DNA of 63,102 nt, filler included, from Stramenopiles sp. TOSAG23-3 (lineage: Eukaryota), in the NCBI GenBank assembly GCA_900128585.1. It is 13 parts of 13 records of this genome, joined end to end, with 100 filler letters (N's around TTAATTAATTAA, not from the genome) between each part and the next. Parts side by side here need not be neighbours in the genome. Positions count along the whole stretch, not along the records: positions 13,045 to 19,461 come from LT643325.1; 12 more parts are not named here. One strand, 5' to 3'. Shown here one piece after another: positions 10,213 to 56,600 of the stretch. A program made the position numbers and the translations under genes. Within the stretch, counting starts at the first letter, position 1. Each line of letters opens with the position of its first letter. The notes under the pieces are model-generated. The model was not told the DNA's origin, did no database searches, and saw only the letters and a list, made by a program, of their open reading frames with translations.

Positions 10213-11670
10213 TCAGTGACCTTCTGCAGCGGGTGGCACGCTTGTCATGTCGCTATTTACCGCGGATTCAGGGGCGACCGAAGATTTCTTTTTGGCATCT
10301 TTGTGATGCTTCGACTCCTCCTCCGTTTTTTTATGGGGCCCCAAATTCGAAGTCAAAGAGTACAACGGTATAACATTGTATGCGCAGTGAACTGCTACAA
10401 GTGTTGTTACTAAAGAGTTGATGATAATCCACACCCATGTTCTTTGCGATACGTAACATCCGGTAAAACCAGTCTTCATTATGAAAAAGATTGTGGTGCC
10501 GAACTCAGTCGAGTTGAGCCAAATGACCATTCGTATCATGTATAAAACAATGTCAGGATCTTTGCGCCAAAAAGTGGGCTCGATTTTTTTCAATTTTTCA
10601 GTTATTTCGTCAGATGCGCTTTGAAGCTTCTCAAACTCTGCTACACTGATATCCCCAGAATGGTCGACGTCGGCTAATTCAAATATATCTTCGCACATTT
10701 GAGCCTTTATCCTGTCTAGTTTTGATCCCGCAATCAAAATTATAAATACGGACATGTATACGCCATACCCAAAATCAAATAAATACGCCTTCAGAGCTAA
10801 TTGGCAGGACAGGATCATCCACATCCACCAGCTGACACCAATCAACTCGATATACCCGTGATCGTTGTCCTTCATTAGCTCCTCGAAGAAGCTAAAACCC
10901 TTCCCGCCCGTATTATCTTTCAGGGCCTTTTCATCACCCTTATTTTGTGCGAGAAAGGAATTCTTGACCGCGATAAACGTAAAGCTATCGACACTCTCAT
11001 GGAGTTGCGTCTGGCAGGAGCACAAAAATTTATTTTTGTAAACCACTGGTTTCACGATATCTGTTGATTTCACTGCTGCATCGCCCTCTTCCTCGAATGC
11101 TTTCCATGTAGCTACCCTTTTTGTGGCACCCACCATGACCATCATTGTCACCGCAATATGCGTGAGCATAATGCCGAAGATGTAAAAGTGAATGTCGTGT
11201 AACGCCTTGATCGAGATAAACGGGTGCTGGCCCGTGGCCGAACACTCCGGGTGAGGGAATCCGACGGTATTGTCAGGGCAACAATTTTGGAATCGATTGC
11301 AGGTGATTGCCGGGCCGCTACTACTTGCTCCAAGGAGCATTCTTCGAGCGGAAGAGTTGCCTACGACCGCGGAGGTATCGCACGCTGGTCTAGTATTCGG
11401 TATGCCGTGGCAGGCCTCGTTTATGCATAGGCTGACAATGTCTTCTTCAACCAGCAACAGCAAGATCGTTAGCACGCCTACGAGCATTATTTCGTCTTTG
11501 ACTTTCTCAAACACTTTAAGGAAAACTTCTTTTCTCTTCCAATGATGATGAATATGGTGATGGAGATTTTCCAGTGACACTTCAACGATCAAGGATATAA
11601 GTACGTACCCCATTAGCACTCCAACTAGTATACCCGCACTGGTACCGTCAAGGGGAACGCCTGCACCCAT
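10213..11670 (-). CDS. MLO: MLO-family seven-TM protein with internal EF-hand
   Basis: EKVKDEIMLVGVLTILL, Cys-rich first loop, PFISIKALHDIHFYIF, VATWKAFEEE, LIGVSWWMW, FWRKDP and IPLYSLTSNLG match MLO motifs. EF loop DVDHSGDISVAEF. Confidence 0.88.
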   Translation of the reverse strand: MGAGVPLDGTSAGILVGVLMGYVLISLIVEVSLENLHHHIHHHWKRKEVFLKVFEKVKDEIMLVGVLTILLLLVEEDIVSLCINEACHGIPNTRPACDTSAVVGNSSARRMLLGASSSGPAITCNRFQNCCPDNTVGFPHPECSATGQHPFISIKALHDIHFYIFGIMLTHIAVTMMVMVGATKRVATWKAFEEEGDAAVKSTDIVKPVVYKNKFLCSCQTQLHESVDSFTFIAVKNSFLAQNKGDEKALKDNTGGKGFSFFEELMKDNDHGYIELIGVSWWMWMILSCQLALKAYLFDFGYGVYMSVFIILIAGSKLDRIKAQMCEDIFELADVDHSGDISVAEFEKLQSASDEITEKLKKIEPTFWRKDPDIVLYMIRMVIWLNSTEFGTTIFFIMKTGFTGCYVSQRTWVWIIINSLVTTLVAVHCAYNVIPLYSLTSNLGPHKKTEEESKHHKDAKKKSSVAPESAVNSDMTSVPPAAEGH

Positions 11671-15395: not shown

Positions 15396-15860
15396 TAGGG
15401 TATGAGGACGCTAAATTTAATTACTTATAAATAACAGCCAATTTTCTTGTTTTTTTTATATATTTCTGAAATTAAAAAATAAAATAAAAATTATATAATA
15501 CTCCTCGTATTATGAAACAAAATTACAGAACCAAGTTAGGATTAGGGTATGAGGAAGCTAAATTTAATTACTTANNNNNNNNNNNNNNNNNNNNNNNNNN
15601 NNNNNNNNNNNNNNNNNNNNNNNNNNNNNNNNNNNNNNNNNNNNNNNNNNNNNNNNNNNNNNNNNNNNNNNNNNNNNNAGAATAAGACTTCTGGTATTCA
15701 TCATTCAAACTAACATAAAATTGTTTGAGACAGTGGCTATTATTGTTTTGTTGAGGCCTGGCTCTATCCCAAAACGTATTATGATGATCATAATGATGAG
15801 TTTTTTTCAAGTCGTATACATTAGGTAATTACTTAAATAACAGCCAATTTTCTTGTTTTT
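15396..15860 (+). repeat. Local copies of a short dispersed AT-rich repeat (TAGGGTATGAGGAxGCTAAATTTAATTACTTA...AATAACAGCCAATTTTCTTGTTTTT)
   Basis: Near-identical segments at 15396-15457, 15536-15574 (cut by the N gap) and 15821-15860. Related copies occur on other fragments. Confidence 0.7.
15575..15678. other. Intra-scaffold assembly gap (104 N, no linker)
   Basis: N run lacks the TTAATTAATTAA core and is flanked by repeat copies. Confidence 0.9.
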
Positions 15861-15931
15861 ACTATATAATTTGTTTTTTTTTTAAACTCTCATTTATAAA
15901 TCGTTTGAAAGAGTTTGGTGCGCACACATTT

Positions 15932-18802
15932 TTACACAGCATTGTTTGGGAAACTCTTGATCTCAATTTTGTTCTCTTCGTACAGCTTTTGTTTGTGATG
16001 TTTCTTGTACAGAGCATTCAGTACCACGAGCTGGATGATTTGGATTGAAACTGCAAACAGCAGCAGGCCCCCCATGGCCATCGAGTTTCTCCGCACGGCT
16101 GCTACCATAAGATCAACGAATTGTTGGTAGCCCTTGACCCCTGTGGAGCAAAATTCTGCTTGGCACTCTTCTTGGTCAAACCCAATCACGTGCTCATCCA
16201 ATACTTTGCAAGCCGCTTTCGCCATTCCCTTGAACTGCCCCGTCTTTGAACTCGGGGTTCCACTTATTGATTCGCAAAATTTTGGACGGGAAGGGTCGGA
16301 CACATCAAGAATACCAGTGTTGATATCGCCATCGTGCGCTGTTAGGCAAACGCCGCTGTCAAGGGATGTGGTGCCGTTCGTGGCGTTCACACTTGAATCC
16401 AAACGAGTCCCATTCACGACCACCGGGTCCTCCGTAACGGCCCCTACCCCAGTCCCCTCCGACGCGAGGCGGGGGTCGCGGCAGCAGTTGCGGTAAGACT
16501 CGCAGACATAGTTTTCCACTTCCATCAAGGCATCGCTTCCAAGCTTTCCATCCCATTTTCCACCGCCGATCGCACTGTTCTCAATGCCATCGAGGCTGTG
16601 CAAGTAAAACAGCAAAAGGAGCGCAGCAACGATTTGAACGATGAGAAAAAGCACCGAAACGAAGGAGGCAGAGAATATGTAAAAGCGACTTGGCGAGACT
16701 GCGGCCTTCCACTGCAACACCCCTTGAAGTAGAATGGCAACACCGAAGCAGATCAACGCAATATTGGCTGCCTTCGACAACAGGTTCCCGTATACACCAT
16801 CGTTCCCCAATATATACACCCCGACCCCGCAGAGTGCTGCACCCAGCAACACAAACAAAGCTGAAATAAAGTGAGACGACCTGATTTTTCGCTCTTCTGT
16901 CCCGAACAGGCATTTGGAAATCATGCTCATTACGATGGAAACGATGAAGCTAGCAACGAGCGGAATTACAATGTACAATTCGGAGTTGAGGAAGGAACTC
17001 AGGCCTTCTTTCTCAGGCGCCATTCTGGGAGGACCAAGCAAGGCACCCGTTCCGTTCATGAGTGGTCGGTACTTCTTGTACTTGTCCGCGTTTGAGCCGA
17101 TCTGAACGATGCACTCCGGGTGGCATGTCGACTTCATGCCGCACCCGTCCGGCGCGCACCTTGAAAATGCGGTCCTCGCCGTGTAGGATTCAGCGGCAAA
17201 GTTTCTGTTGCACTCTTTCTGGTCTGTGGCGACATACTCTTGGTCCATGTCCTTGTTCCTTTCGCGGCACCGTGTGGCAATAAACTCGCAGCCCCTGTAA
17301 GCGCCGTAGTCCACGTACTCCGTCTTAGAATAATCCACCAAGTAGAGACCCATGTCTTCCAACGGGGCCAGGCCGAAAGGAGTCAGCCGCCCAACGTGTC
17401 CATAAGAAATTACGTCCTCCACAAGAATAAAACTGTTGTGGTGGCTGTCCCGGCCGGTCTCTGCCGACCCCATCAGGGGGAGCCCGTTCCATTTCGAATC
17501 GTCCTGACAGTCGAAATGAACCTTTGCGAGGGTCGAAACTCGGGTTGAGGGGTTGAAGTGCCAGAGGGCATCGTCCTTTTGCTTTGCAGCACCCGTCGTC
17601 GTGTAAACGTTTTTCAACTCAACGATGCCCGACCGCTGGAACATTTGAACGGTGAAACCGAGCCCATGAATTATTTCGTGGACCGAGAGGCTCGTGTACC
17701 GGTTCTCTTTAAGCTCTTTGAAGTCTGCGTCGGAAAGCTGCGCTTTCCGGCTGTTGATCGCCCGCAGGCCTGCCGCCAAGTCGACTCTCATATTGTAAAT
17801 CATGGTGATAGGGCGGCCGTATTGGTCGAACTCGCAGGGCCCGCCCGTGGCCCCACCGTTCATGACCGGGTTGTAGGTCAGGTAAACGACGGCGTTCGCG
17901 TCCACGCCGCCTCCACAGTAAGAGTCTGGGCTGGAGGCTCCGCACAAGTAGAACGTGTCCGCCCCACAACGCTGCGAGGAGGTGTCCCACCCCCAGGTGC
18001 CCGAGTACATGCTTGTGTACGTCCCCTGCGACTTTTGCAATTTTAGCTTCCCTGACATTTTCGGCACACGAAGCGCTGCTTCTAACTTATCAACGGCGTT
18101 GTCGACGCTTTCTTTGAAGTGCGCCCGCAGCTCTTCAGTAATGACGTCATCAGGCTGGCATTTGCCCCAGCACGGGGTCGTCGACACCGACGGCGGGCTG
18201 CACGTGGGGGCCGAGGGAATGTCGCTGGCGGTAACATACTCTGGGCCAGTGTAGTACCAGTCACCTGCGTTGAAGCATGTCTTGAAAGGTTTGGCGGACG
18301 CAAGATGCAGTTGGTCCCAGTTCACTTCTAGCTTTAGCGGAACCGTGTTGCTCGTAGTGAGGGTCGCGCCCTCAAGCTTGCGGGAATTTTCTCGCCTGCT
18401 TACGGCTTTCTCCACAACCCTTTGAAGGCTTCCCAAAATGCCGTCGTTCCGCCCGTAGTTTCCGTCCGCAGCCGCATTATATCGTTGGGGAGTGAAAGTC
18501 TCCGTCATGTGACGGTTTCCAAGCTTCTGGGCGACGCGGTGCTCGAACATCATAGCGCTGACGACCGGGCGCAAGGGCTCCAGCGGTTCCTTGGGGTTGG
18601 AAGCGCCTGTTGGCGAGGCTGACTTGTCACTTTCCTCCAACATTCTTCGCTCATGCTCGTACAGCTGCGGCATCCCCTCCCTGTGCACGTCTTCGATCGC
18701 TTTGCGTACAGCAGCATCCTCGTTGCTGGATACCCACACGTACGTGCCAGCGAAAAAGATGGCCGCCAGCACCGCCACGGAAACGAACTTGTGAGACGTC
18801 AT
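15932..18802 (-). CDS. Leishmanolysin/GP63 (peptidase M8) metalloprotease with C-terminal tetraspanin-like four-TM module
   Basis: N-terminal signal/anchor. DQYGRP, HEIIHGLGF zinc motif, HFDC, DSHH, LAPLEDMGLY and GAYRGCEF are M8 motifs. Then one TM, three further TMs, a Cys-rich loop (NCCRDP) and a final TM, as in tetraspanins. Confidence 0.85.
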   Translation of the reverse strand: MTSHKFVSVAVLAAIFFAGTYVWVSSNEDAAVRKAIEDVHREGMPQLYEHERRMLEESDKSASPTGASNPKEPLEPLRPVVSAMMFEHRVAQKLGNRHMTETFTPQRYNAAADGNYGRNDGILGSLQRVVEKAVSRRENSRKLEGATLTTSNTVPLKLEVNWDQLHLASAKPFKTCFNAGDWYYTGPEYVTASDIPSAPTCSPPSVSTTPCWGKCQPDDVITEELRAHFKESVDNAVDKLEAALRVPKMSGKLKLQKSQGTYTSMYSGTWGWDTSSQRCGADTFYLCGASSPDSYCGGGVDANAVVYLTYNPVMNGGATGGPCEFDQYGRPITMIYNMRVDLAAGLRAINSRKAQLSDADFKELKENRYTSLSVHEIIHGLGFTVQMFQRSGIVELKNVYTTTGAAKQKDDALWHFNPSTRVSTLAKVHFDCQDDSKWNGLPLMGSAETGRDSHHNSFILVEDVISYGHVGRLTPFGLAPLEDMGLYLVDYSKTEYVDYGAYRGCEFIATRCRERNKDMDQEYVATDQKECNRNFAAESYTARTAFSRCAPDGCGMKSTCHPECIVQIGSNADKYKKYRPLMNGTGALLGPPRMAPEKEGLSSFLNSELYIVIPLVASFIVSIVMSMISKCLFGTEERKIRSSHFISALFVLLGAALCGVGVYILGNDGVYGNLLSKAANIALICFGVAILLQGVLQWKAAVSPSRFYIFSASFVSVLFLIVQIVAALLLLFYLHSLDGIENSAIGGGKWDGKLGSDALMEVENYVCESYRNCCRDPRLASEGTGVGAVTEDPVVVNGTRLDSSVNATNGTTSLDSGVCLTAHDGDINTGILDVSDPSRPKFCESISGTPSSKTGQFKGMAKAACKVLDEHVIGFDQEECQAEFCSTGVKGYQQFVDLMVAAVRRNSMAMGGLLLFAVSIQIIQLVVLNALYKKHHKQKLYEENKIEIKSFPNNAV

Positions 18803-19561
18803 TCGTTGTTGGCTCGCAGTTGTCTTAAAAAAGAAGAGAAGAGTAGAGGTGTAAAAACTTATTACCGCAGAAGGACTTATTACAACGACAAACAAGTGCA
18901 ATGCAACGAACTGTTTTCGTCTGAATTTAATTTTTTTTTAAATGAACTCATGTAAAAAGATGCTCTCTTTTTAGAAATTGGTTCGTTTTCAAATCTATTA
19001 TTTATACACGATGATTATTACTAAATATTGTATACCTACGGCGGTAGTTAGTAGTAGTAGTAGTAGTAAAAAAAAAAAAAAGGAGGATGGATATTAAATC
19101 CTCTCTCTACACACGGCGGTACCAGGTATAAAATAAAAATACGGTACCCGGTACCTGTATTACCAGGTACCGATAATATAAATACGGGGTATCCTCACGT
19201 ACTTACTTCTACGAGGAATCAAAGACAAAATATTGATTCAATATATATAATAGTCTAAAATATTAATATACCCTATTATATTTATACTTTTTATCATCAT
19301 CATTCATCATGACGTTAATTTTTTTAATTTTTTAAAATTATTATTATTTTAATTTTATTTATTATACAGGTATAATACAGTATTAAAATAAATAAATAAT
19401 ATTCGTCTAAAATATAATAAAAGAGAGGAAGAAGAAGAAAGAAGAAGAAGAAAAAAAGAAGNNNNNNNNNNNNNNNNNNNNNNNNNNNNNNNNNNNNNNN
19501 NNNNNTTAATTAATTAANNNNNNNNNNNNNNNNNNNNNNNNNNNNNNNNNNNNNNNNNNNN

Positions 19562-19706
19562 GGGCTCGCGGGAGGGGGCGGCCCCCAGCTGGGGAAGCAC
19601 CAGAGACGAAAACATGGAGAGTACTGGGTGGGGCTCGCGGGAGGGGGCAGCCCCCGGCTGGGGAAGCACTCGAGACGAAAACACGGAGGTTGATGGTTGG
19701 GGAAGC
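19562..19706 (+). repeat. 69-nt (23-aa) tandem coding repeat carrying WG/GW motifs, truncated by the contig end
   Basis: Units at 19562-19630 and 19631-19699 encode GSREGAAP[SG]WGSTRDEN..E..GW. Confidence 0.9.
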
Positions 19707-22700
19707 AACAGAGCGCAAGATTTTCAAAAAGAGAAGATCGGGCAAGTAGAAAAAAAACAAGGGGCAGAAGACGACGGGGAAACGAAAGCGGCAGCGGAAA
19801 CCGGAGGGCTGGGAACGCGCAGAACTGCACCCCCGAACAACGTGCCTGTACAACACGAACGTTCCTCCAGCACGGCATCGCTGGAAAGAGCAGAGAAGTG
19901 GGGAATCGATAATTCCAACAGTCAAGCGCCGGCAGAGCGCACGTCCGGCAAGTTGGCGTCGAGCGGGAAAGGCGTATCTGCGCCCGCCGCCCCTGCTGCG
20001 TCTCCCGCCATGGCTGAAAGCGTGGGCGCAGGGCCTGGGACAGTCGTGCTCGACGGCGTGGCCTACGGGGACAAAAAGTTGGTTCAACAAAAATTTGTGG
20101 ATATATCGGATAGTGCCCAAGGTCGGTGGAAGCGGGACAGCAAGTGCGACATGGAGCTGCCAAGGGATGGCGCTGACTTTCGCTTCATTCTGGATTGTTT
20201 CCGGTTCAAGTTTGACGACGAAAACGAGTGGAAAGAATTCAAAGCGACGCTCGACGGCGTTTATTATGGCCCTTCCACATCGTTCAAGTACCGGCTGTCC
20301 CACCAAAGCCGAAAAAAATGGACAGATTTCAAATCGAAACACCGTGAATTTTGCTTGGAATGCATCAAGTTCCCGCTCACCATCAACAATGTCCCCTTCG
20401 GTTCAAAGGAAGAGTTACGAGACTGCTTGGAAAATATAAAATCCAAACGCTTTCGAAGGCACCTGAATGACGACGACAAGCAGGTTGTCCTCGAGCTCAG
20501 CAAGTATTGGGTCGAGACGATCGTGCACTCGGTGCGGGTTATTCAAAGGTGGTGGACCAGTCCAGAACGCATGCCTTTCTTCCGGCCCAAAGTTGACGGT
20601 GTCCTGGGAACGTTCTACCCAAAACTTTTTTACCGTAGTGGCGGGAAGTGCTTCAAGTTGGTCCGTCGCGCCTTGATGGGGAAGATGGGCTTCGTAGGAC
20701 CCAACAATAGCGTCGGCGTGCCGAAGCGAAAATTCTTACTCATGCCGCCGCCGTCCGTCGTGGACCAGGCAAGGGTGGAAAGGGACGTCACTCGTGCACC
20801 CGCCGAGGAGTTTCAACGACTGGACCGTATGCACCGAGCGTTTCTGGAACAAACACCAGACGCTCTGTTTCCAGAGGACGAGGACGATTTGAGGAAACGC
20901 GGCGTCGCAGCCTTTCGGGAAGAGCTGCGGGCAATGAAACTGCTCTCCATACGAAAGGAGTACGGCGAGAAGATGGATCAAAAAACAAAAAACGTTTTCA
21001 AGGGGTTGGCCGGCCTGCGCGGTATTAAGAACAGCAGCGTTGCTGCAGGGCTATTTATTCCTGCGCGCTCGCCCAGTGGTGAAATACTGGGAGCCCAAAT
21101 AAAGCCAATCAAACGAGCGCCCACGGAAGGGGGGGAGGAAAAGCAGGCGAAGTACAAGTGGTGGGGCGACTGCGTCAAAACAATAGCCAACGGTGGTCGC
21201 CCGACGAAACAATCGCATCAAATGATCTTTCGCGATTCCAAAAACGCAGGGCGCATCGAGAACCCTTTATTTTGCTGGAGAAATTTTGAGGGCCAAGTGG
21301 AGAGTGCAGAAACGATCGCTCTCTGCGAAGGTGCGTTGAAACCCGCGATTGCATACCTACTGGCCCAGGGCAAAACGTTCGCAGGGTGCGAGCAGGACGA
21401 TGGTGCCTCGTACTCGGTGGACGCCTGGATCGGTGCGGCCGGGGGGGCGTTCGAAGGTTCTCGCGTCATGCTGCACGAGTACTTGAGCAGGTTCGTACAA
21501 TTAAAGACCGTGATCTTGTTTCCAGATGCAAACACGGTCACACTGCTCTCCGAAACGGAGAGCGATTGGTCCTGTCTTCATAACATGACGATAGAGCTGG
21601 TGAAAGCGTTCGTCGTGCTCACAAATGATGTTGGCCTCAGAGAAGACCAGATCAAGGTGGCCTATTGGCCTCAGCAGAACATGGAGGCTGACAAGGGCGC
21701 GCTGGACATCGACGACCTATTGAACACTCTCGTGGGGGCAAAGGCTGTGCGGATCCATCCTTGGTCGTACTTTAAAGAGCACGTTGTTAACCTGAAAGGC
21801 GGGCCATCCTGGGCCACTAGGGATGCCATCCAGCGGAACTTTGATTATCATTTGTCCCGTTGGAAGGATGCGACGTCCCAGCAGCAAGGGTACGCGGGCG
21901 CCGTCGCTCGAACGAGCTTACCCTCGCCTCCCCAGACCGCCAAGAAGAGTCCGAGTAAGAGCTATCCTGGGATGGCCAAGGGGGCGACGTCCCAGCAGCG
22001 AGGGTACGCGGGCGCCGTCGCTCGAACGAGCTCCCCCTCGCCTCCCCAGACCGCCAAGAAGAGTCCGAGTAAGAGCCTTGCCAGTGAGAAAGAATTGGAA
22101 ATCGTAGATTCCGTGCGCAGAAAGCATCGCAGCATCGAAGACCGCTGCATGAAAGTGTTGGAAGGAAAGCCATCGGCGAGCCCTGAAGAGCAAATTGTAA
22201 AACTGACGAAAGACGAGATTAAATTCTACTTTGCCCTTCTGTCGTATCACCCAGACTGGGACACGAAAAGCGTTGGTGTAAAATCATTTACTTTCGGCCC
22301 GCACAGCCAATTGCAGGGCAGCACATTTTATGCAATACTGCTAGACTATGGGGACAGACACGACACGTTCAGCCTCAAAAAGATCCTGGCAATGATGCGG
22401 TCCAATGTGAATGCCGTCGGCATGAACAAGAACAAGGAAAATCAATTCGTACTTCGCGAATCAGGTCGTACGAAAGGACCCTCGCCTGCGTCCCACGATT
22501 CGGTCGAAGCGCTGCGCTCGAGGCTTGCCAAAGCGTCCACAGCCACAGAACTTTCCACAGCCCTTGCCAAAGCGTCTATTGATTCTATTCGGGCCCAGCA
22601 CAATCGCATCAGCGACCGTTGCCGGAAGGCCTGGGACGCCACGTCCCGAACTAAGCTTGATTATGTGGAACTAAGTGAGGATGAAATCAAATTCTACTTT

Positions 22701-25082
22701 GCCCTGCTACCGCACCACCCAAACTGGGACACGAAACGGATTGGCTTGGAATCGTTTACTTTTGGACCGAAAGGAAAGAACGTCGGAGTTCTCTTGGAGT
22801 ACGGGGACAGGAAGGACACCTTCAGCATCAACAAAATTTTAAAGACGGTAAGGCGCAGCCGTGAGCTCGTGCGCGAGTCCGAGAGCGAGGCGGCCGACTC
22901 GGCACCGCATTCGCACGGTGTGGAGAAACCCAAAAACGAGGGCAAGGCGACTTCAGCAGACTCGAAACCGTTTTCAGACACCCCAGTGGACGCTTCCGGG
23001 GCTGCGCCGTGCGCTACCGCAGCCGAGGAGCGTGGACCGGAGACGGAGAGGACCACGCCGACTGTATTCGAAAAGTTCAAACACTTAATTGAAATCCGCG
23101 AAATTGACTTGGCTGCCGAAAGGAAAGTCCGCACCCAGTTCAGGTGGCATGTCGTATCGGATACGCCCGACTACGCTGACACCGTGGACGCGACCATCCC
23201 TTATGACTTCAGCCGTCTCGAAGACGATGATCGCGAGTGCGTGTGGGACGATGACGCAGACGAACTGTACCAGTCCGACGTGAAGCAAAAATTGCTCAGG
23301 GTGGAGGTGGAGTACCTAGGGTCGACCCCCGTCGCTTTCGACCGACGGCAATGGAAGCAGCTTCTGGACGTGGACTTTATTATGTTAAAAAACAACAAAT
23401 CGGAGAGGGACGAGTACGTTGTTCCAGACATATACCAGACGGGGGAGTCGGCCGATCTGTTCCTCGAGTCGCTGGATCGTTTTTTGGTCGAGGATGTCGC
23501 CGACGTCCTCTCTGTCGGAGAAACCAAATCGGAAGCGGCCCCTTTCAAAATTGCAGACGGAGTGTTCCGTCACGGGGCCGTCCTGTTCGGTACCTCTCTG
23601 CGGGACGTTCGTAAGGTGGTCTCCCCGCAGCTCGTGACCAAAAGTCTGTCTTCGACGGCGTACCGGAAAGGAAAAGAGAGGGTTACCCACAAGGATCACT
23701 ACCGCAAGAAAAACGTTGTGTTGTGCCACCATCACCAGCCGTTTCTTCAAGTGGCGGCATTTCCGAACACTGTTGGGCAGAACAGTTCGAAAACCCAACG
23801 GTCCGACTTCCTACCCTCGGAAATTCTTAAGTTTCACAAAACACTCAGGCAGTTCCACTACACTCCTATTAAATTTTTAAAAAGGTGGCTGAAGGGCTTG
23901 CACGAGCGCGGTGTGGTGAGGGCCGAGATAATGGAGAAGGTCCAAGCGTCGGATTGGAACGGTTTCTCCCTTCGGTTGAAGGACGAGGCCCTGAGCCAGG
24001 AGGCGCACATGCACGGCTCGTTCAGTTCCGTTGCAAGAATATTTGACGGTGACAACGGAGTGGATTTCCTCAGCTACGAGCGGCTGGAAAAGCTGGGCGA
24101 TGCCGTTCTTGAGTACTGCGTGATTACACTGCTTGCGGGAACGATGCCAAGCAACCTCATGTGGGCGGTGCCCTTCGTTCGTTCGGCCCTGTGCAGCAAC
24201 AGATACCTTGCCTGCGTCAACCGGAAGTTCGGCATCTACGACTTTGCGTTCAAGAAAAATCTGCCGAAGCATGTCGAAGCGGTCGCCGACAAGCTGTTGG
24301 CCGACCAGGTGGAAGCGTGGATCGGCGCAAAGTACACCGACGAAGGCGGACCAACAAAGCAGGGCATTGCGGTGGTGAGGGCGCACGTCGCTCACCTGAT
24401 CTCGTCGTGCAGCCATGCGGACATGGTCGACGCGTTCGGGTCAGCCAGCGAGCGTCTGTCTCGGACGTCTGAGTCCATGAAGAAAGAAATTTGCGATCTC
24501 GTGAGCCGGTGGTCGGATCATTCCCCGGGTGCCGCACCGTTCAACGTCCAAGCAGTCGAACGACGGATAGTCTTTCAAAGCTTTTACAGCAAACGGCTCC
24601 TCCGAGTGTGGGGAACGGTGCTGAAAAAGTTGGGCATCACCGACCACGCGTTTCGGCGGACTTACTTTTGCAACTCAAAGAAGGTTTGGCGAAAGTTCGA
24701 CGAAGGGCACATACACGCCGTCCAGATCCTTCTGGAGTTCAAAGAGATCATTCAAAAAAATGTCCTGCAGTCTGGGATCGTGAAGGCGAAGCCACCGGAG
24801 CACTTGGGCGGGGAAGACCCGAGCACGTACGCCACGTACGAGTTCTTTATGATCCTGGCCGCGACGGACGCAAAGTCCGGGTTTGAAGAAGCGATTCGTC
24901 TGATCAGGACGCACATGATCCAGCCTTTGTTCGGTGGTACCGGCGACCTGACGTCCCTCTCACCCGACGACATCGAGAAGAGAATAAAAGAAAACTGGAC
25001 CTCCCCTCAGCTGGGTCGGCACCAGATAGCTTGGATTGTGCTTGATAATTTGTACGGAGAGGGCCAGTATATAATGCCATAA
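19563..25082 (+). CDS. 5'-partial large multidomain protein: WG/GW repeats - DCL/DUF3223-like - Toprim primase-like (CyRepA1/DUF3854-like) - 2x DCL/DUF3223 - RNase III
   Basis: Frame is open from the contig edge (first ATG 19614). Motifs: GWG repeats; LCEGALKP / WIGAAGG / LFPDAN / VAYWPQ / DIDDL (Toprim); two YHPDWDTK..GV.SFTFG...DTFS units (DUF3223); YERLEKLGDAVLE and LADQVEAWIGA (RNase III). Confidence 0.85.
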   Translation, partial: GSREGAAPSWGSTRDENMESTGWGSREGAAPGWGSTRDENTEVDGWGSNRAQDFQKEKIGQVEKKQGAEDDGETKAAAETGGLGTRRTAPPNNVPVQHERSSSTASLERAEKWGIDNSNSQAPAERTSGKLASSGKGVSAPAAPAASPAMAESVGAGPGTVVLDGVAYGDKKLVQQKFVDISDSAQGRWKRDSKCDMELPRDGADFRFILDCFRFKFDDENEWKEFKATLDGVYYGPSTSFKYRLSHQSRKKWTDFKSKHREFCLECIKFPLTINNVPFGSKEELRDCLENIKSKRFRRHLNDDDKQVVLELSKYWVETIVHSVRVIQRWWTSPERMPFFRPKVDGVLGTFYPKLFYRSGGKCFKLVRRALMGKMGFVGPNNSVGVPKRKFLLMPPPSVVDQARVERDVTRAPAEEFQRLDRMHRAFLEQTPDALFPEDEDDLRKRGVAAFREELRAMKLLSIRKEYGEKMDQKTKNVFKGLAGLRGIKNSSVAAGLFIPARSPSGEILGAQIKPIKRAPTEGGEEKQAKYKWWGDCVKTIANGGRPTKQSHQMIFRDSKNAGRIENPLFCWRNFEGQVESAETIALCEGALKPAIAYLLAQGKTFAGCEQDDGASYSVDAWIGAAGGAFEGSRVMLHEYLSRFVQLKTVILFPDANTVTLLSETESDWSCLHNMTIELVKAFVVLTNDVGLREDQIKVAYWPQQNMEADKGALDIDDLLNTLVGAKAVRIHPWSYFKEHVVNLKGGPSWATRDAIQRNFDYHLSRWKDATSQQQGYAGAVARTSLPSPPQTAKKSPSKSYPGMAKGATSQQRGYAGAVARTSSPSPPQTAKKSPSKSLASEKELEIVDSVRRKHRSIEDRCMKVLEGKPSASPEEQIVKLTKDEIKFYFALLSYHPDWDTKSVGVKSFTFGPHSQLQGSTFYAILLDYGDRHDTFSLKKILAMMRSNVNAVGMNKNKENQFVLRESGRTKGPSPASHDSVEALRSRLAKASTATELSTALAKASIDSIRAQHNRISDRCRKAWDATSRTKLDYVELSEDEIKFYFALLPHHPNWDTKRIGLESFTFGPKGKNVGVLLEYGDRKDTFSINKILKTVRRSRELVRESESEAADSAPHSHGVEKPKNEGKATSADSKPFSDTPVDASGAAPCATAAEERGPETERTTPTVFEKFKHLIEIREIDLAAERKVRTQFRWHVVSDTPDYADTVDATIPYDFSRLEDDDRECVWDDDADELYQSDVKQKLLRVEVEYLGSTPVAFDRRQWKQLLDVDFIMLKNNKSERDEYVVPDIYQTGESADLFLESLDRFLVEDVADVLSVGETKSEAAPFKIADGVFRHGAVLFGTSLRDVRKVVSPQLVTKSLSSTAYRKGKERVTHKDHYRKKNVVLCHHHQPFLQVAAFPNTVGQNSSKTQRSDFLPSEILKFHKTLRQFHYTPIKFLKRWLKGLHERGVVRAEIMEKVQASDWNGFSLRLKDEALSQEAHMHGSFSSVARIFDGDNGVDFLSYERLEKLGDAVLEYCVITLLAGTMPSNLMWAVPFVRSALCSNRYLACVNRKFGIYDFAFKKNLPKHVEAVADKLLADQVEAWIGAKYTDEGGPTKQGIAVVRAHVAHLISSCSHADMVDAFGSASERLSRTSESMKKEICDLVSRWSDHSPGAAPFNVQAVERRIVFQSFYSKRLLRVWGTVLKKLGITDHAFRRTYFCNSKKVWRKFDEGHIHAVQILLEFKEIIQKNVLQSGIVKAKPPEHLGGEDPSTYATYEFFMILAATDAKSGFEEAIRLIRTHMIQPLFGGTGDLTSLSPDDIEKRIKENWTSPQLGRHQIAWIVLDNLYGEGQYIMP
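21870..22076 (+). repeat. 114-nt (38-aa) tandem duplication within the CDS
   Basis: ATSQQ[QR]GYAGAVARTS[LS]PSPPQTAKKSPSKS occurs twice, starting at 21870 and 21984, nearly identical at DNA level. Confidence 0.95.
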
Positions 25083-46612: not shown

Positions 46613-48094
46613 TCAAGGCACAACTTTGCAGTCATTGCCAACAAAAATTACAGACCTCTTCAGCTCCATGGCACGAAACATATCCAGTGATCTGACGTAT
46701 TCGCGTGACGCCAAGTCCGCTTGGCGGATAGGCACGGGGATTCTGAATTTCGGGCTGCAGCGGGACACGAGCGCAACGGCCGTGCTCGTCGATATCCTGT
46801 GCCCAGGACTGACATAGACGGGTTTCTTTACCCCCGCCTTGCTGAACGCTGCCCCCAGAACTTCCCCGGTAAATTTACTCACGATGTTCATGTGGCCCTC
46901 TTCAAAAACGGACACCGTTTTCTGCATTTCCTTTTCGACTTCTTTGGCAGCAAGACCGTCGCAGTTCAAAAACGATTTTCCAACCCCCAATGTTGGAAGA
47001 TCCATCAAAACACCCAGGTGGGACGCGGCCCCGACCCGATTGGGGTGCAATATTCCGTTTCCATCGCACATCAACAATCCGGGGTAGTATTCTGGGTTTT
47101 TTTCTTTCAGCTCTTCTAGCAAAACTTGGAAGTATTCCACTTCCCGAAATGCCAGAAAACCAGAAATATACGGGTGCGTCAACTCAATCCTGCGGTACGC
47201 TTCATATACTAACTTCAGCCCAGGAAACTCGAAGACCACCAGGCCACTAACTGCATCCACGTCGCTATTGTTTACAAATGAAATGTCGCACCCACCAACG
47301 TATTTCAGTTTTTGAACATCAAATTTGTCTTGAACAACAACTTTCTTTCTCACTTCGTTCTGTATCGTTTCCCATTCCCGGAGGATGTTCGATTCTTGGA
47401 TTGGCTTTTCCGGCACGCCGGCTGCTTTTGCAGTTTCACTCTTAGGCTGTGAGAAAAATGTTTTCATGAACGATCTCCCTTTTGATTCTTGTTCCCAAAG
47501 TTTCAGTCCATGATCAAAGCTTGGCCAGTTCAGCCCCGTACCTTTTTGCAATTTGATAGCGCACACACCAATAGAATGCGCCAATCGAACGTTGTATGAC
47601 ATGTCATCGAAAAATATTATGTCGTGGTTGCAAATCCTTTGCTTGCTGCAGAAGGAAAGTATTTTTTGGAAATGCTTTGCTTTGCCATCACCCGAACCGC
47701 GTTGAACACAGACCAAAGCAGGAGTGAAATATTTATAAACACCAAACGCCCGCAGAGCGTTCGCGGCGTGCGAAATATCTGGGCTGCTCGATGCAACGCC
47801 CATTAGAACACCGTTACCTTTCAAACTTTCAAGGATTTCCACGACATCCGGAAACAAGTGAACGGTTTTTCGTTCCGGGCGCGAGTCTCTCTCTTTCGAA
47901 TTGCAAACGGCAGCACCCGCACCATCCCCCGTTTGAAAAGGACCACTCAGATGTTCAAAAACAAAAAACGGCCATAAAGTATAATCCAGGTCAAACACAC
48001 AGACTTTTGGCCACTTTGAAGGTGTATATCTCGACCCCGATATACGCCGTTTACGGCAAGTGCGTGTCGGGGAACAGGAAACCAAGGACGACAT
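46613..48094 (-). CDS. ENDOV: Magnesium-dependent phosphatase-1 (HAD) - endonuclease V fusion
   Basis: N-half: VFDLDYTLWP, GVASS, K..HF, IFFDD. C-half: GGCDISF, PYISGFLAFRE, MCDGNGILHP, GVGK, PVYVSPGH, RIPVPIRQADL. One ORF. Confidence 0.92.
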   Translation of the reverse strand: MSSLVSCSPTRTCRKRRISGSRYTPSKWPKVCVFDLDYTLWPFFVFEHLSGPFQTGDGAGAAVCNSKERDSRPERKTVHLFPDVVEILESLKGNGVLMGVASSSPDISHAANALRAFGVYKYFTPALVCVQRGSGDGKAKHFQKILSFCSKQRICNHDIIFFDDMSYNVRLAHSIGVCAIKLQKGTGLNWPSFDHGLKLWEQESKGRSFMKTFFSQPKSETAKAAGVPEKPIQESNILREWETIQNEVRKKVVVQDKFDVQKLKYVGGCDISFVNNSDVDAVSGLVVFEFPGLKLVYEAYRRIELTHPYISGFLAFREVEYFQVLLEELKEKNPEYYPGLLMCDGNGILHPNRVGAASHLGVLMDLPTLGVGKSFLNCDGLAAKEVEKEMQKTVSVFEEGHMNIVSKFTGEVLGAAFSKAGVKKPVYVSPGHRISTSTAVALVSRCSPKFRIPVPIRQADLASREYVRSLDMFRAMELKRSVIFVGNDCKVVP

Positions 48095-49035: not shown

Positions 49036-51852
49036 ATGGAAACGCACGAGGAGGTGCCGTTTGAATTGCTTGTCACGACAAATTTTATTGGCATCGAGCT
49101 TTACGTTACACCAAAGGGAAAGGGCGCTTTCGTTGGTGGCTTTCGGCAGCAACCAAAACGGTTTGGGATGTCGTCGGAGACGCGCGGTCCTGCAGAGCTG
49201 AGTGGCCTTGTTAGGCCAGGGGACCTCCTATTGAGGGCCAACTCTATCGTGGTGAAGGACATGAAGTTGACGGAAATAGTGCAGACCATAACAAAGTTGG
49301 GGAGGCCCGTGAGCCTGCTATTGCAGCATACATCGTTTTTGGATCCTGCAATGGCCGATATGGAAACGTTCTTGAAAGACTCGGCGCAGGTGGAAGCCTA
49401 CTTTCGGTACATCGAGAATAAATTCGAGCCACGCGGGACGGATCGAAAGGAGATTGCTGTCATGCGCGACCGTCTTCGTTTTGAACAGACGAAAATAATG
49501 TTCTTGCTCGAAGCGATACACTACGAGACGATCAACGATGCGTCCGTGCGCGCCCAAGTTGCAATGAAGTTGCACGAGAAATTCTTTTCTTCAAAGAGTA
49601 AATTTCAACTGGAAAAATCGATTCGGGTCAAAGGGGAAGTGATCATTTCAAATAGCAAAATCGACGCGCAGACGAGCACGCCCATGGCGGGCTTCAATAC
49701 AAGTGGGTGGGGAATGGCTGGCGACGGGCTTCATTATCGTTGGGCGACCGAGAAGCTCATGAATCCTATTGTAAACGACGTAAAGCTGAGTTTAATCCAC
49801 CTGTTTTGCACGTTCAAACAGCAGTACAAACGAACTGCGCGCCGATCGCCCACCAGCATGATCGAATGGTCCCTTCAGGACGTGTTGAAGCGCAGGGGGT
49901 GGAAGAGTTACTTTTTGACGTTTCTGTTGCAAACGAGGCAGCACAACAGTTTTTTGCTTTGGGAAGCGATAAATAAGGTGTGCGGGAGCGAGGGGTCGGA
50001 CCAGTATATGGGGGTCAACTTTGAGCACCACCGCACCACCATCAATCGCCGATTTGTCAGGCCGAACGCTCCGTGCTTCGTCTTATGCCTCGGCGCGGAC
50101 CTTCGACGGAGTCTCTTGGGGCGAGAGCAAACGAAGGAGGGATACCTTGGCTTACTCTCCGAGGCCAAGGAGCAAATAATGGCGTATCTAACACAGTTTT
50201 TGGTGGGATTTCAATCCAACGGCCTCCACACCCTTATGGAAGAGCACAAGCCCCCTAGCACGCCTATTTCTTGCACAAAACTCCTTCAAATTTTACGAAT
50301 GAAATCAATGTACGGGCATGGCCTGTCCGTAAAGCAAGTCGGCCGGAAGGACGCGACGCTAATTCCAACGGCGCCCCGGGCCACACCTAATGCAATTATG
50401 CAAGGGTTTTTTGTTATGCAGCAGCATCACTGCGACGACGAAAAAACAAAAATTGTGCCAATATTTTCTTCCATGAATCAACCGGACGTCGGCGTGACTT
50501 ACCACAATCTAGACTCCTTTTTCTTGGCAGACAAGAAACTGCTGCGGGAACTAGACAAGCAAACGCTGGAGTGCTTTCATTTTGTTTTGTCAGGAAATTA
50601 CCGGTCCCAAATCGGGGGGTACACATACGCCACGTGCTTACGGTACACGACTTCGGTCAACATCCCGACACCACTACCAGCTCTTCAGAAATCGAGAACC
50701 AGCTCCGTGAGCACGAAAGCGGCACACGTGCAGGAGGACAACGACGAAGCAGGACGCTCAGGCGAACCGTGTGCAGCAGCGAGGAATGAAATAGAATTGA
50801 CCGAACAGAGGGTTAGATCGTTCTCGAGCTCTGTGGCGGACCAGTCTAGCAACCACGCAGACACACGGGGTGAATGTAGCGAGAGCAAGACTCCCTATGG
50901 CCAGAGCGCTGTCATTACAACAGGAGTTATGCTGCTCAGCAGCGCACCAAGCTCCATCGCTACATTAAGGCCAAAGATGATCCGGCTATTTCACGAGAGC
51001 GACTCGTTTCGCGATTTAATTTTGAAGCCGAAGATTCAAGGAGAGGACATTGATGCGCTGGAGCAGGTTTTGGCGGGCATCAGCAGCGACGTCGCAGACG
51101 ACGAGGGCAGCAGCCTTCTTTTTCGCAAAAGACAAGAAAAGCTAATTTATGCGTTACTCTCGCCGCATTTGATTGCTCGAGTGGTGTGCCACATTTTGCT
51201 GGAGCGAAAAATCGTGTTCGTTTGCTCGAACAAGACGACACTGGTGTACGTTGCAGAGTACTTTCGGTCGGTGTTAGAGCCGGTATTAACCTGGCCACAT
51301 GTGTACGCCCCAGTACTGCCCGATTCGATGCTGACAAATTTAGAGTGCCCAACACCTTTCATTATGGGCACCGTGGGGCACGTTAGAAAGCACGGGCTTC
51401 TTTTCAAATTGATGAAGCAAGACGAGAGCATGTGCATCATTGATTTGAACGAAAGCACCATGTTTGCTAGCCATTCTGCAGAAAAGGTTATAACATCCAT
51501 GGTGGCCAGCCTATCGGGGGATATTACGACGCAGATAGAGCGGGAATCTGCTTGCGAAGACAATTGTACTATTACCGATAAAACGCGCAGGGCCCTGCAC
51601 GAAATCATAGGAGATACCGTGCTCGAAGTTACGAGAGGCTACAGGGACTGCACCGTTGAATTTGAGACTGAGGATCCCAAGGCGACCGAAAAAGGTTTGA
51701 TGAGGAAGAAGAAATTAAAGGTGGGGAACGTTATCGTTTTTGACGAAGTTGCGTACAAAAAGTGCCACAAGAAGCTCATGGATGTTTTTCTGTCTTCGTT
51801 TGTACAGACGCAGTTGTTTTCGAATCTAGTCACTGAAAATTACAAGGTGTAA
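49036..51852 (+). CDS. PDZ - RGS-like - DENN domain protein
   Basis: GPAELSGLVRPGDLLLRAN is PDZ. FLKDS...YFRYI...IMFLLEA...LHEKF and LQDVLKRR...FLTFL...FLLWEAI are RGS-like. ILLERKIVFV...WPHVYAPVLP...LECPTPFIMG and FLSSFVQTQLF are DENN/dDENN. Confidence 0.8.
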   Translation: METHEEVPFELLVTTNFIGIELYVTPKGKGAFVGGFRQQPKRFGMSSETRGPAELSGLVRPGDLLLRANSIVVKDMKLTEIVQTITKLGRPVSLLLQHTSFLDPAMADMETFLKDSAQVEAYFRYIENKFEPRGTDRKEIAVMRDRLRFEQTKIMFLLEAIHYETINDASVRAQVAMKLHEKFFSSKSKFQLEKSIRVKGEVIISNSKIDAQTSTPMAGFNTSGWGMAGDGLHYRWATEKLMNPIVNDVKLSLIHLFCTFKQQYKRTARRSPTSMIEWSLQDVLKRRGWKSYFLTFLLQTRQHNSFLLWEAINKVCGSEGSDQYMGVNFEHHRTTINRRFVRPNAPCFVLCLGADLRRSLLGREQTKEGYLGLLSEAKEQIMAYLTQFLVGFQSNGLHTLMEEHKPPSTPISCTKLLQILRMKSMYGHGLSVKQVGRKDATLIPTAPRATPNAIMQGFFVMQQHHCDDEKTKIVPIFSSMNQPDVGVTYHNLDSFFLADKKLLRELDKQTLECFHFVLSGNYRSQIGGYTYATCLRYTTSVNIPTPLPALQKSRTSSVSTKAAHVQEDNDEAGRSGEPCAAARNEIELTEQRVRSFSSSVADQSSNHADTRGECSESKTPYGQSAVITTGVMLLSSAPSSIATLRPKMIRLFHESDSFRDLILKPKIQGEDIDALEQVLAGISSDVADDEGSSLLFRKRQEKLIYALLSPHLIARVVCHILLERKIVFVCSNKTTLVYVAEYFRSVLEPVLTWPHVYAPVLPDSMLTNLECPTPFIMGTVGHVRKHGLLFKLMKQDESMCIIDLNESTMFASHSAEKVITSMVASLSGDITTQIERESACEDNCTITDKTRRALHEIIGDTVLEVTRGYRDCTVEFETEDPKATEKGLMRKKKLKVGNVIVFDEVAYKKCHKKLMDVFLSSFVQTQLFSNLVTENYKV

Positions 51853-53685: not shown

Positions 53686-56600
53686 ATGAAGTACAGAACA
53701 AGGAACAATATTTGTTTGAGAATTACTTGTTTGGAAAAGTTCAGGGCCTTCAGTGGGCACCTACAGAGCGGCATGTACGTATTTTCCCACCTGAGGGTAT
53801 CTGCGGGACCAAATGCCTGCACTTTGCTACGGCACGGGCGGTCATCGGTGCGGCTCTGCTGGCCTGGCACGGCAACAAGGTCGCCGTTTGTAGCCTGCAG
53901 CCGGGGGGGGGGAGGCTTCCATCCTGCAAGTACGCAATCCAGAGCCTCGCCATCGGTAGCGGTGAAATCAGAAACCGACCCTGGTATTTTTGAGACAACC
54001 CTGTACAGTGACCCAGAATACATAAAATTTGCGGACAACGAACCCCACCCAGTGGTCCTCAGACATGTACAGCGTTTTTGGCCGCTGCGCTCGTCTTCTC
54101 GGCGCATGATTCCGCTGTTGGCCCATTCTAGCACAGGAAATCCTCTTGGTTTTGCAACTTCACAGGAGCGGCGAAGCGGAACGTTGTTTGATTTCGTGTG
54201 CGGGGAGAAAGAGCGCTACCCGGACAAAGTATTGCTGGTGCGAGTAGGAGAATTCTACGAAGCGTTCGGGTTTGACGCGATTCTTCTCGTGGAACACTGC
54301 GGGCTTAACCCGATGGGTTCAAAGGCCAGGGCCGGCTTTCCCATAAAAAACATCCAGCAGACACTGGATGGGCTGACGGACGTTGGGTTGAGCGTGGTGG
54401 TCTACGAAGAAGGGGGTGAGGGCACGGTAAAAGGTGAGCCTGGGGACGGGGAGCACATTCCTCGCAGCGGGACCATCAAGAGCCGCTTCTTGTCCCAGAT
54501 TATCACGCCAGGAAGCTCAACGTACATCTATAATTCTGCGCTGAGAACGGATGACATAGAGTACCGAGAAGGGTCATCCTATATTGGCATCCAAATCAGT
54601 GGAGGGGGGGGGGCAGTCGCATCGAGCGTGTCCAATACGAAAAGCGGTAGCCGGGCGGACGGTTCGCTGCACTACACCCTGTACGACGTGCGGCTGGACT
54701 CCAGGCTTGTCCGCATTCACGAACGCCTCACTGAAGATGCAGCACGGTGTATTATTGAGGCGTCGTCTAGAAGCAAACGGCTGGAACATATCTATGGGAA
54801 CCGGGCGGGGCAGTACCTGGGCGCTGGCACGGAACCTGAAGGCATCGAGTACAGCGATGCGCCCGATAGCGTGCGGGGGGGGGGGGGCATGTTCTACGTT
54901 GCAAGGACAGGGGGTGGGGACATCCCAGCTCGGACGAAACGCGTGGTGTTTGGGAATGCGGGAATGAACGGAAACCATGTCGGGGCGATGCGCAGTGGCC
55001 AAGGGAGCGGCATCACCCGCCTTCGGCGTGCAGAAAAAGACCCGCAAGCATTCTTGGAAGAATTCCTAGCGCATTTGGCGAGAGATATGGAAGCGGAAGA
55101 CGTTGCGGACGTTACAAATTTTCGTGTCGTCGGATCGTCGGACCTTTCCGCGGCCGATGACTTCGGGGCTGTGGGGAAACAGCCACGGCCGCTGTACGCC
55201 CCGACGGCGCAACAGCTGGGAATATTGCCATCTGCCCAAGTTCCCGACTTGGTCAGCTACTTGCTTCCCCCGAGCGATTCCCCAAGCAGTGCTCGCGACT
55301 ATTTGCGGCGCTGGCTGCTGCGCCCCCCACCTTACAAAATTGCTGACCAAATGCAATCTTTGCTGAAAGGTCTGACATCTATGAATCATGGGCTGCCGCC
55401 CCTGCGCACCGTGGTCAGCACTGGGAAAATGGTCAGTCTGGTGTACTCCAAGCAAGCAAATGCAAACTTGTTTCGCGATGTGGCAGAGCTGTTGGAGTCC
55501 GTCATATCTATATTAGACTCTACAAATGAGGATACCGCCGGACTCTTGTCGCCGTTGACGGCCATCGTTAGTTATGAGTGTGGTTTTACAGTAGAACCCG
55601 TTCAATTGCGGGAGGATACGAAAGATGCACTGAGGGAGATCGACAGAACTGTCAGAAGACAAAACTTTGTTCCAGAAGCAGACTGGGCCCCGACCGTCGA
55701 AGAATCTGGCTGCAACGTTTCCTCTGCTGCATATGAATCGCTTCGAGACATGTTTATAAGCGGGAAAGAAAATGGGAGGGGGGCGCCCAGCGGCGATCCA
55801 AGCCCTGGTTTTTTTCTGGACAACATGTTCAGGAAGAATGAATACGACTTCCGAAGTGCCGTGATTCCAACTGCCTCTCGTACACTGGAGGATTATTTTC
55901 ACAAGGTCAATGTTGCACGGACGGAGCTAATTGAATCTATCCGTGCAGATCTCGTGGCACCCTTTCAAAATAGAGAAGGCCAAAAGGCTGGGCTGTCGCC
56001 CTTTTTTTCTTCTGGGAATGAACTAAAGTACGACATGCTGAATAACAAAATCATGTTTTACAAGAAGCCGGCGGCAGCTACTGGACAAGAAAACACCGCC
56101 CCCGAGTGGGTCCACCCACTTGACCGGCTCGGGCGGCAGATGCCAGCACGGTTTACCACAAAATCCATAGAGGTGGCCACATCCAACTACTTAGGAGCGT
56201 GCGAAGACGCAAGGGTTGCGGCTCGAGCTGAGCTGCGAAGTCTCAGTGCCCGCTTCGTTCAAAAACAACATTTGTTGGCGTCGGTCGCGTCCGTCCAATT
56301 CAACGAAACTTTGCTTGCCGTCAGCCTGCATGCCCGGGAGGCGTCCAGGAAACAGTGGGAAATACCAGCGTTGGAGCGTCTCTATAGTAGCGCAATCGAA
56401 GAGAATGGGTATGGGGAAAGCGCCAACAATCGCTCCCGTATACAATTGAGCCTGCCGAACCTGGTGCCTTACTGGCTGTCTGCACAAGATGGCGCCGTTG
56501 AAAACACCATTGAGCTCCAGGGCCAATGGCTGCTCACTGGCTCGAATATGTCCGGGAAGTCCACCCTGTTGAGGAGCGTCACCGCTGCGGCTTTGCTTGC

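Follow-up and report, generated by a model that had tools for sequence, protein, structure and literature searches.

The gene analyzed here lies on the minus strand at positions 15932-18802 of a 63,102-nucleotide stretch of joined records (the window) from the genome of Stramenopiles sp. TOSAG23-3 (GCA_900128585.1), within the part taken from LT643325.1, and it joins a leishmanolysin-type (M8) protease to a tetraspanin-like membrane domain. The two halves are encoded by one transcribed gene. An earlier note on this DNA, made from the sequence alone, had read the gene as a protease-tetraspanin fusion, and the data support a real and conserved fusion: a single open reading frame (ORF), RNA contigs, the predicted tetraspanin fold of the C-terminal region, the recurrence of the architecture in other protists, and a second M8 clade that is also fused to tetraspanin-like modules. 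Both parts and a working analogue were already known. No description of an M8-tetraspanin fusion was found in targeted searches of the open-access literature, supplementary files being outside their scope. Both Pfam labels are precomputed for several of the homologues, and databases may list the architecture.

Gene and transcript

The fusion protein (P0001) is encoded by a single ORF of 956 residues that contains neither an internal stop nor an intron, and no joint falls inside it. The transcript evidence was taken from four RNA runs of three studies and consists of contigs rather than reads, with some carry-over of DNA possible. The contigs span positions 15889-18844 piecewise. The HEIIH zinc site of the protease and the CC motif of the tetraspanin loop were joined by a single contig in two of the four runs, representing two of the three studies (15889-18183 and 16385-17778), and the shorter of these contigs derives from an oligo-dT library. 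In the remaining two runs, an allele bubble around 17204-17280 or a break at another point interrupted the contigs. Transcripts that separate the two halves would have refuted the reading of the earlier note; instead, the contigs bridge them.

Compared with the window, all four runs have three extra in-frame bases at 16975, which add one residue ahead of the helix that links the two halves. Allele differences are clustered at 17234-17252, where the stalk begins. RNA cover at 18856-18982 was absent from all four runs, which points only weakly to the end of a transcript. The runs containing the gene are marine or aquatic wherever the source is named.

Protease half

The assignment to family M8 was based on the Pfam Peptidase_M8 (PF01457) match at residues 214-517 (E 3.1e-15; profile positions 98-355 of 529), on the HExxHxxG motif, and on a distant third His located 72 residues beyond the Gly. 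The family profile also matched chain residues 25-300 of 478 in the GP63 structure 1LML (E 2.5e-30), while no match to the GP63 C-terminal domain was found in the fusion protein with either the Pfam M8 profile or 1LML. An intact HEIIH zinc site at 17666-17680 had been reported in the earlier note. Its position, the zinc ligands, and the catalytic Glu were borne out (H375, E376, H379, and H454), the first three being invariant in all 29 rows spanning the site and residue 454 being His in 32 of 32. The description as intact holds for these residues and does not extend to the Met-turn, where the Met is missing and Ile465 takes its place. Among the 35 family rows, this position is Met in 18, Glu in 8, Leu in 5, Ile in 3, and Ala in 1. 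These rows are what was left of 36 after P0109 was dropped (motif unmatched), with P0059, P0067 (replaced by P0195), and fragments without HExxH excluded.

The effect of this substitution was considered in relation to other metzincins. In an excerpt of PMC1266349, MMP-2 tolerates Leu or Ser at the Met-turn, and in passages of bioRxiv 10.1101/2024.02.17.580826, group G1 of the Trypanosoma cruzi GP63 proteins has Leu in place of the Met. ADAM pseudopeptidases are described, in part of PMC11266112, as keeping the Met-turn and losing zinc ligands or the Glu. Judged by sequence, loss of the Met-turn Met with intact zinc ligands is the reverse of that pattern. The stramenopile M8 protease is likely active with a remodelled site, and in the stramenopile branch the remodelled Met-turn may go with an altered activity. 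The distance of 72 residues between the Gly and the third His is near the 69-74 residues given in the cited excerpt for the Met-less T. cruzi group G1.

The prodomain that probably precedes the catalytic domain contains no Cys, the first Cys of the protein being residue 176, and the region is Cys-free in 21 of the 24 rows, which include N-terminal fragments. A prodomain without Cys implies the absence of a cysteine switch of the GP63 type. A basic motif was observed ahead of the mature start in 12 of the 24 rows, and the R-K-L site is likely to be the maturation cut.

GP63 (MEROPS M8, PDB 1LML) and invadolysin share with the fusion protein the N-terminal and central domains, HExxHxxG, the distant third His, and a prodomain. 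The fusion protein differs from GP63 in having no C-terminal domain match, no propeptide Cys, and no glycosylphosphatidylinositol (GPI) signal, in the Ile at the Met-turn, and in its five membrane helices. Of the features that passages of bioRxiv 10.1101/2024.02.17.580826 give for GP63, the propeptide cysteine switch, the C-terminal domain, and the GPI anchor were all lacking here, the C terminus being polytopic. The family is deduced to be M8-derived, with the query as a deviating member that also lacks the Met-turn methionine by which metzincins are recognized.

Stalk and linking helix

Where GP63 has its C-terminal domain, the alignment places a Cys-rich stalk, in which C531, C549, C554, C560, and C564 are conserved at 97-100%. 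The distance from C512 to the linking transmembrane helix (TM0) is 96-134 residues in 24 of 24 rows, and approximately 45 Cys-free residues separate the last stalk Cys from TM0. No conserved cleavage motif was seen in the alignment between these two points. A hydrophobic helix precedes the first tetraspanin helix (TM1) in 42 of 44 testable matches, and the TM0-to-TM1 distance is 31-45 residues in all 24 rows.

The N terminus of a tetraspanin is cytosolic, and an outer protease therefore requires exactly one extra helix, which TM0 provides. Basic residues are concentrated in the link between TM0 and TM1, in that between TM2 and TM3, and in the tail. The M8 protease and the large tetraspanin loop are thus likely to be on the same face of the membrane.

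Tetraspanin half

Hydropathy analysis gave five helices after the N-terminal segment, at residues ~609-632, 645-666, 678-698, 709-734, and 907-931. The loops between the last four measure ~11, ~8-10, and ~170 residues, which is the tetraspanin pattern. Pfam Tetraspanin (PF00335) matched residues 645-754 (E 9.3e-8; 32.4 bits against a cut-off of 32.1), and the score rose to 37.4 bits against the same cut-off when the C-terminal 342 residues were submitted alone. The match is limited to TM1-TM3 and the beginning of the large loop, and the scores of most homologues fall under the cut-off. Profile searches of solved structures gave CD53 (E 1.9e-10), Tspan7 (3.5e-9), and Tspan15 (1.5e-6), the matches to these three, CD9, and CD81 together spanning E 1.9e-10 to 3.6e-5.

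The most detailed motif data came from an alignment of the C-terminal region comprising 96 rows, namely the query, 84 of 119 search matches, and 11 other homologues, with short fragments, P0109, and P0121 excluded. The large loop contains the motifs C-x2-Y-x2-C-C and D-P-S-x3-F-C and eight conserved Cys, each retained in 93-96 of the 96 rows. C-x2-Y-x2-C-C is present in all 96, a count that is partly circular because the rows were picked by similarity. The residue after the CC pair is Gly in 1 of 96 rows and Arg in 57. Position 921 in TM4 is Gln or Glu in 72 of the 90 rows that have a residue there. An insert in the loop at residues 780-816 is variable, is of low model confidence, and contains three N-glycosylation sequons.

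An AlphaFold model built from the 96-row alignment had a mean predicted local distance difference test score (pLDDT) of 84.7 and a predicted template-modelling score (pTM) of 0.79, confidence being low in the loop insert only. When the model was compared with 48,161 chains by VIA, the best matches were CD53 (Z 13.1; root-mean-square deviation [rmsd] 3.5; 184 aligned), Tspan15 (Z 12.9; rmsd 3.5; 192 aligned), and CD9 (Z 12.3; rmsd 4.4; 188 aligned), the next non-leading chain having a Z of 8.9. CD81 compared with the model gave Z 13.6, with an rmsd of 7.0 over 169 aligned residues. The first six Foldseek ranks were all tetraspanin-family chains. A single-sequence AlphaFold model reached a pLDDT of 50, with tetraspanins at Foldseek ranks 1-4 at E ≥0.14, and was not relied on; the ESM Atlas gave no usable match.

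Residues 634-940 are accordingly predicted to adopt a tetraspanin fold. The earlier note had called one linking helix followed by four helices with tetraspanin spacing, a large Cys-rich loop with CC, a polar Gln in TM4, and CCR in place of the canonical CCG; the helices and loop sizes, the eight Cys with their CC pair, Q921, and residues 773-775 agree with each of these calls, and the structure prediction that the note had suggested as a check returned tetraspanins. CCG is used as a tetraspanin criterion in passages of PMC6895871. With CCR at this site, and with the Gly missing from three stand-alone tetraspanins of the genome as well, the domain is classed, on the model, as a non-canonical tetraspanin-fold domain.

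Occurrence of the fusion

A full-length search gave 10 relatives, 8 of which extend into the tetraspanin, and a further homologue search, based on the A1 profile, yielded just 5 additional proteins. The search from the tetraspanin side gave 119 matches. An M8 domain lies upstream in all 16 matches that have 250 or more upstream residues; at thresholds of 200 and 130 residues, the counts are 20 of 21 and 27 of 32. Five of these 32 are without M8 (P0097, P0121, P0135, P0152, and P0171), and by eye all except P0121 look like fragments that start in a stalk-like Cys-rich segment.

The same fusion recurs in distant groups of protists, where the earlier note had suggested looking for it. An organism or lineage is named for 7 of the 26 family clusters that were looked up. 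The presence of both domains was verified in a MAST-4-labelled record, in Triparma verrucosa, T. strigata, and Tetraparma gracilis, and in Emiliania huxleyi (partial), Prymnesium parvum, and Yihiella yeosuensis. For Cladocopium goreaui, the record holds a fragment with the protease alone, and the other members of its cluster are fused. The named full fusions are from the MAST-4 label, Parmales, haptophytes, and a dinoflagellate, and one cluster with 56% identity includes a member labelled Stramenopile-MAST_4. This label and the marine or aquatic sources of the runs suggest that the host is a marine stramenopile of MAST-4 type. Positions conserved at 90% or more number 19 in the large loop, 9 in the stalk, and 0 in the five helices. 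This distribution is consistent with selection acting on an interface outside the membrane.

A split-gene form, suggested by P0008 and P0009, which stop before TM0, was rejected at locus L018, where a 137-base GT-AG intron is followed by the tetraspanin half. L018 was the one locus that matched the truncated form (2 loci were obtained from 177 candidate stretches). Two additional domain combinations were observed: P0064 and P0195 (Parmales type) have a cytosolic tail with a zinc finger of the RanBP2 type, and P0109 (1351 residues) has M8, tetraspanin, PA, and rhomboid domains and is either another protease fusion or the product of merged gene calls.

Relatives in the same genome

Seven other PF00335 matches were found in the genome, three with C-T-Y-x2-C-C and no Gly and two with CCG. 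The former are stand-alone tetraspanins (L001:799-1647, L005:1513-2181, and a minus-strand ORF in L006), and the latter (L002 and L003) are canonical. The three non-CCG proteins share C-T-Y-x2-C-C without Gly with the fused domain and differ from it in being unfused, in lacking D-P-S-x3-F-C, and in their loop Cys pattern. The alignment of the fused domain (A2) matched L001 across 233 columns, spanning TM1 to TM4, with a probability of 96.6% (E 5.4e-10). The Cys-spacing pattern of the TspanC8 group was also used for comparison, and membership in that group was rejected: the fused domain lacks the Gly of CCG and has one Cys ahead of the CC, and in fold Tspan15 ties with CD53 and CD9. The fused domain likely derives from a non-CCG protist branch of tetraspanins rather than from TspanC8. 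Nothing on stramenopile non-CCG tetraspanins was found in the literature searched.

The genome contains five M8 loci (six matches), of which L009 is of the ordinary GP63 type with a C-terminal hydrophobic tail. A second fusion family is represented by L015:407-4204 (minus strand, 1265 residues) and L016:1-2700 (plus strand), in which M8 and TM0 are followed by approximately eight helices; L016 probably continues L017 across a contig break. These helices resemble two small-loop tetraspanin modules. Of the two modules tested in each protein, one gave a Tetraspanin match, under the cut-off (E 3e-5 to 8e-4), and the family profile matched CD53 (E 8.8e-7), with weak matches to CD81 and CD9 in a second stretch. 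The C-terminal end of L015 has two IQ motifs, and six database relatives were found (P0208-P0213). The second family resembles that of the query in its M8 domain, linking helix, tetraspanin-like helices, and the S-Y-G context of the Met-turn; in contrast to the query, it forms a separate M8 clade (support 100/98), retains both the Met and the C-terminal domain of GP63, and has no CC loop. The M8 tree, with a midpoint root and one long-branch outgroup, is compatible with either one or two origins of the fusion families.

Proposed function and alternatives

Tetraspanins are recognized as small stand-alone organizers, and regulated shedding by a metalloprotease that tetraspanins steer is known from animals. 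The ADAM10-Tspan15 complex (8ESV) resembles the fusion in having a metzincin ectodomain, a Cys-rich stalk, one helix, and a four-helix tetraspanin, with protease and loop on the same face and eight Cys in the large loop. The Tspan15 chain of 8ESV was the top Foldseek match to the fusion model and tied for the top by VIA. However, ADAM10 and Tspan15 are two separate proteins, whereas the fusion is one chain; ADAM10 belongs to M12B and the fused protease to M8; and Tspan15 has CCG and the TspanC8 Cys spacing, whereas the fused loop reads C-x2-Y-x2-CC-R. According to excerpts of bioRxiv 10.1101/2022.10.22.513345, the loop of Tspan15 inserts like a wedge between two ADAM10 domains, the catalytic and the Cys-rich, and sets the zinc ~20 Å from the membrane. 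The loop-protease contact and the ruler function are demonstrated for that complex, whereas the fusion is known here from its sequence and predicted fold.

By analogy, we hypothesized that the fusion is a membrane-tethered protease that its own tetraspanin loop holds, orients near the membrane, and sorts, as Tspan15 does for ADAM10, and we consider the chances of this to be evenly balanced. The signal segment would export the protease, TM0 would cross back, and TM1-TM4 would follow, leaving protease and large loop together on the outer or luminal face. The prodomain would be cut at the basic site without a cysteine switch. A short disulfide-rich stalk would replace the GP63 C-terminal domain, so that the catalytic domain would rest on the eight-Cys loop specific to the fusion. 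Substrates would lie near the membrane and would be proteins either on the surface of the cell itself or on prey attached to it, and cutting would take place at the cell surface or in a food vacuole. A more far-reaching version is tentative and rather doubtful. It holds that the protein is a single-chain sheddase with a tetraspanin ruler, convergent with ADAM10-TspanC8 and present in stramenopiles, haptophytes, and dinoflagellates, that the two M8-tetraspanin architectures of this genome mark a general and so far unrecognized partnership of GP63 and invadolysin with tetraspanins, and that stramenopiles have a metzincin without the Met-turn Met.

Several observations weigh against the proposed function and the fold on which it depends. 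By the comparison tool's own note, a Z of about 13 is a borderline value where helical bundles are concerned, the Foldseek E-values were all >0.001 with best TM-scores of 0.37/0.48, and the profile matches to solved tetraspanins were mainly over TM1-TM3. ADAM10 and M8 belong to different metzincin families, and the analogy is therefore one of convergence only. The M8 clade of 10 rows (support 100/100) that holds the query and all named stramenopile rows has the Met-turn Met in none of them (Glu in 7, Ile in 2, Ala in 1), and in the excerpt of PMC1266349 a Met-to-Ile change compromised the kinetics of protease C. In P0121, the tetraspanin follows a 206-residue upstream region that is not M8. 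P0061 and P0062, which are placed within the same M8 clade, carry a fibronectin type II (FN2) domain and lack membrane helices, from which it follows that this protease can exist without a tetraspanin.

The main alternative is that the tetraspanin is an address label or anchor that takes an ordinary digestive M8 protease to the food vacuole, the lysosome, or extracellular vesicles, with no ruler contact, and this we regard as possible and worth serious attention though not probable. Tetraspanins are sorting and vesicle proteins, and the named carrier groups are phagotrophic or mixotrophic. An M8 orthogroup, which may or may not be that of the fusion, is also one of the 28 phagotrophy indicators for 30 stramenopile genomes (PMC8163842, in the portion cited). 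However, a plain anchor leaves unexplained both the fixed stalk length and the stronger conservation, relative to the helices, of the eight loop Cys, H-x-G, and D-P-S-x3-F-C, and a GP63 of ordinary type whose C terminus is a hydrophobic tail (L009) is already encoded in the genome.

It is unlikely that the stramenopile protease is weakened or dead and that the protein is instead a peptide-binding receptor or an adhesion molecule signalling through its five-helix part. The Met-turn residues of the 10-row clade would suit such a role, and a Glu beneath the zinc would alter the site drastically. Against this, the general-base Glu and three His are retained in every covering row, the opposite of the ADAM pseudopeptidases in the excerpt of PMC11266112, and the Met-to-Leu change of T. 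cruzi group G1 (bioRxiv 10.1101/2024.02.17.580826, as excerpted) indicates that M8 tolerates some change.

We consider it very unlikely that the protein is a precursor from which a cut in the stalk frees the protease, with the five-helix tetraspanin then working separately. Released forms of GP63 exist, and the Cys-free residues ahead of TM0 would be available for a cut; the missing cleavage motif and the fixed spacing favor a kept geometry. That the fusion is an artefact of assembly or gene calling, or its four-helix part an unrelated helical bundle, is scarcely credible: the assembly is fragmented (7,088 contigs) and 2 of the first 10 homologues stop before TM0, but RNA contigs bridge the halves, full fusions occur in records from cultured species, the truncated form is explained at L018 by the intron, beyond which the following exon encodes the tetraspanin half, and sequence and predicted fold both indicate tetraspanins.

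Significance

The conserved covalent pairing of a tetraspanin with an unrelated metzincin suggests that protease-tetraspanin pairing is a repeated solution, and the fusion offers a one-chain model of the molecular-ruler idea. It is predicted that free M8 proteases, such as GP63, invadolysin, and the surface proteases of Entamoeba, may use tetraspanins in trans. An Entamoeba gp63 was present in two of three pull-downs of the tetraspanin partner TBP55 (6.4 versus 0 in the mock; PMC11478834, in the portion cited), a co-purification that hints weakly and indirectly at such pairing. The natural Met-turn variants (Glu, Ile, Ala, and Leu) with an otherwise intact zinc site bear on a long-standing question of metzincin chemistry, and the carriers of the fusion include abundant ocean grazers and bloom-forming algae.

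Features and other genes of the window

Table 1. Features of the fusion gene, with positions counted along the window
Feature	Residues	Positions	Strand	Basis
M8 protease-TM0-tetraspanin fusion ORF, P0001	1-956	15932..18802	(-)	ORF call, Pfam, RNA contigs
N-terminal hydrophobic segment, likely signal peptide or signal anchor	1-26	18725..18802	(-)	Hydropathy (segment 5-26)
Likely prodomain	27-142	18377..18724	(-)	Cys-free; basic R-K-L site at end
M8 N-terminal and central domains	~150-515	17258..18355	(-)	Pfam M8, 1LML profile match
HEIIH zinc-binding/catalytic motif	375-379	17666..17680	(-)	Sequence
Third zinc ligand, His454	454	17441..17443	(-)	Aligned with GP63 third His
Met-turn position, Ile465 and not Met	465	17408..17410	(-)	1LML profile alignment puts the GP63 Met here
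Cys-rich stalk, where GP63 has its C-terminal domain	516-608	16979..17257	(-)	Alignment
Linking helix TM0	~609-632	16907..16978	(-)	Hydropathy, structure model
Tetraspanin TM1, small loop, TM2, TM3	~645-734	16601..16870	(-)	PF00335, profile matches
Large extracellular loop	738-906	16085..16591	(-)	Alignment and model
CCR in place of canonical CCG	773-775	16478..16486	(-)	Sequence
TM4, with polar Q921/Q924	907-931	16010..16084	(-)	Hydropathy, model, alignment
Short basic tail, likely cytosolic, weakly conserved	932-956	15935..16009	(-)	Sequence

In the joined window, the fusion ORF is flanked by a FYVE-PX gene and by a gene with an RNase III domain, and the window as a whole is densely packed with genes and largely free of introns. 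The latter neighbor (19614-25082, plus strand) encodes 1822 residues with one RNase III domain near the C terminus and two internal repeats, the rest being without a Pfam match. AT-rich intergenic repeats at 15396-15575 and 15680-15870 are matched by many RNA contigs of other loci.

Elsewhere in the window, 10213-11670 (minus strand) encodes an MLO-family protein with an EF-hand match, 46613-48094 (minus strand) an acid phosphatase-endonuclease V fusion, and 49036-51852 (plus strand) a PDZ-RGS-DENN fusion. The product of 53686-57660 (plus strand) combines MutS I/V with GIY-YIG, an architecture that we take to be that of plant-type MSH1.

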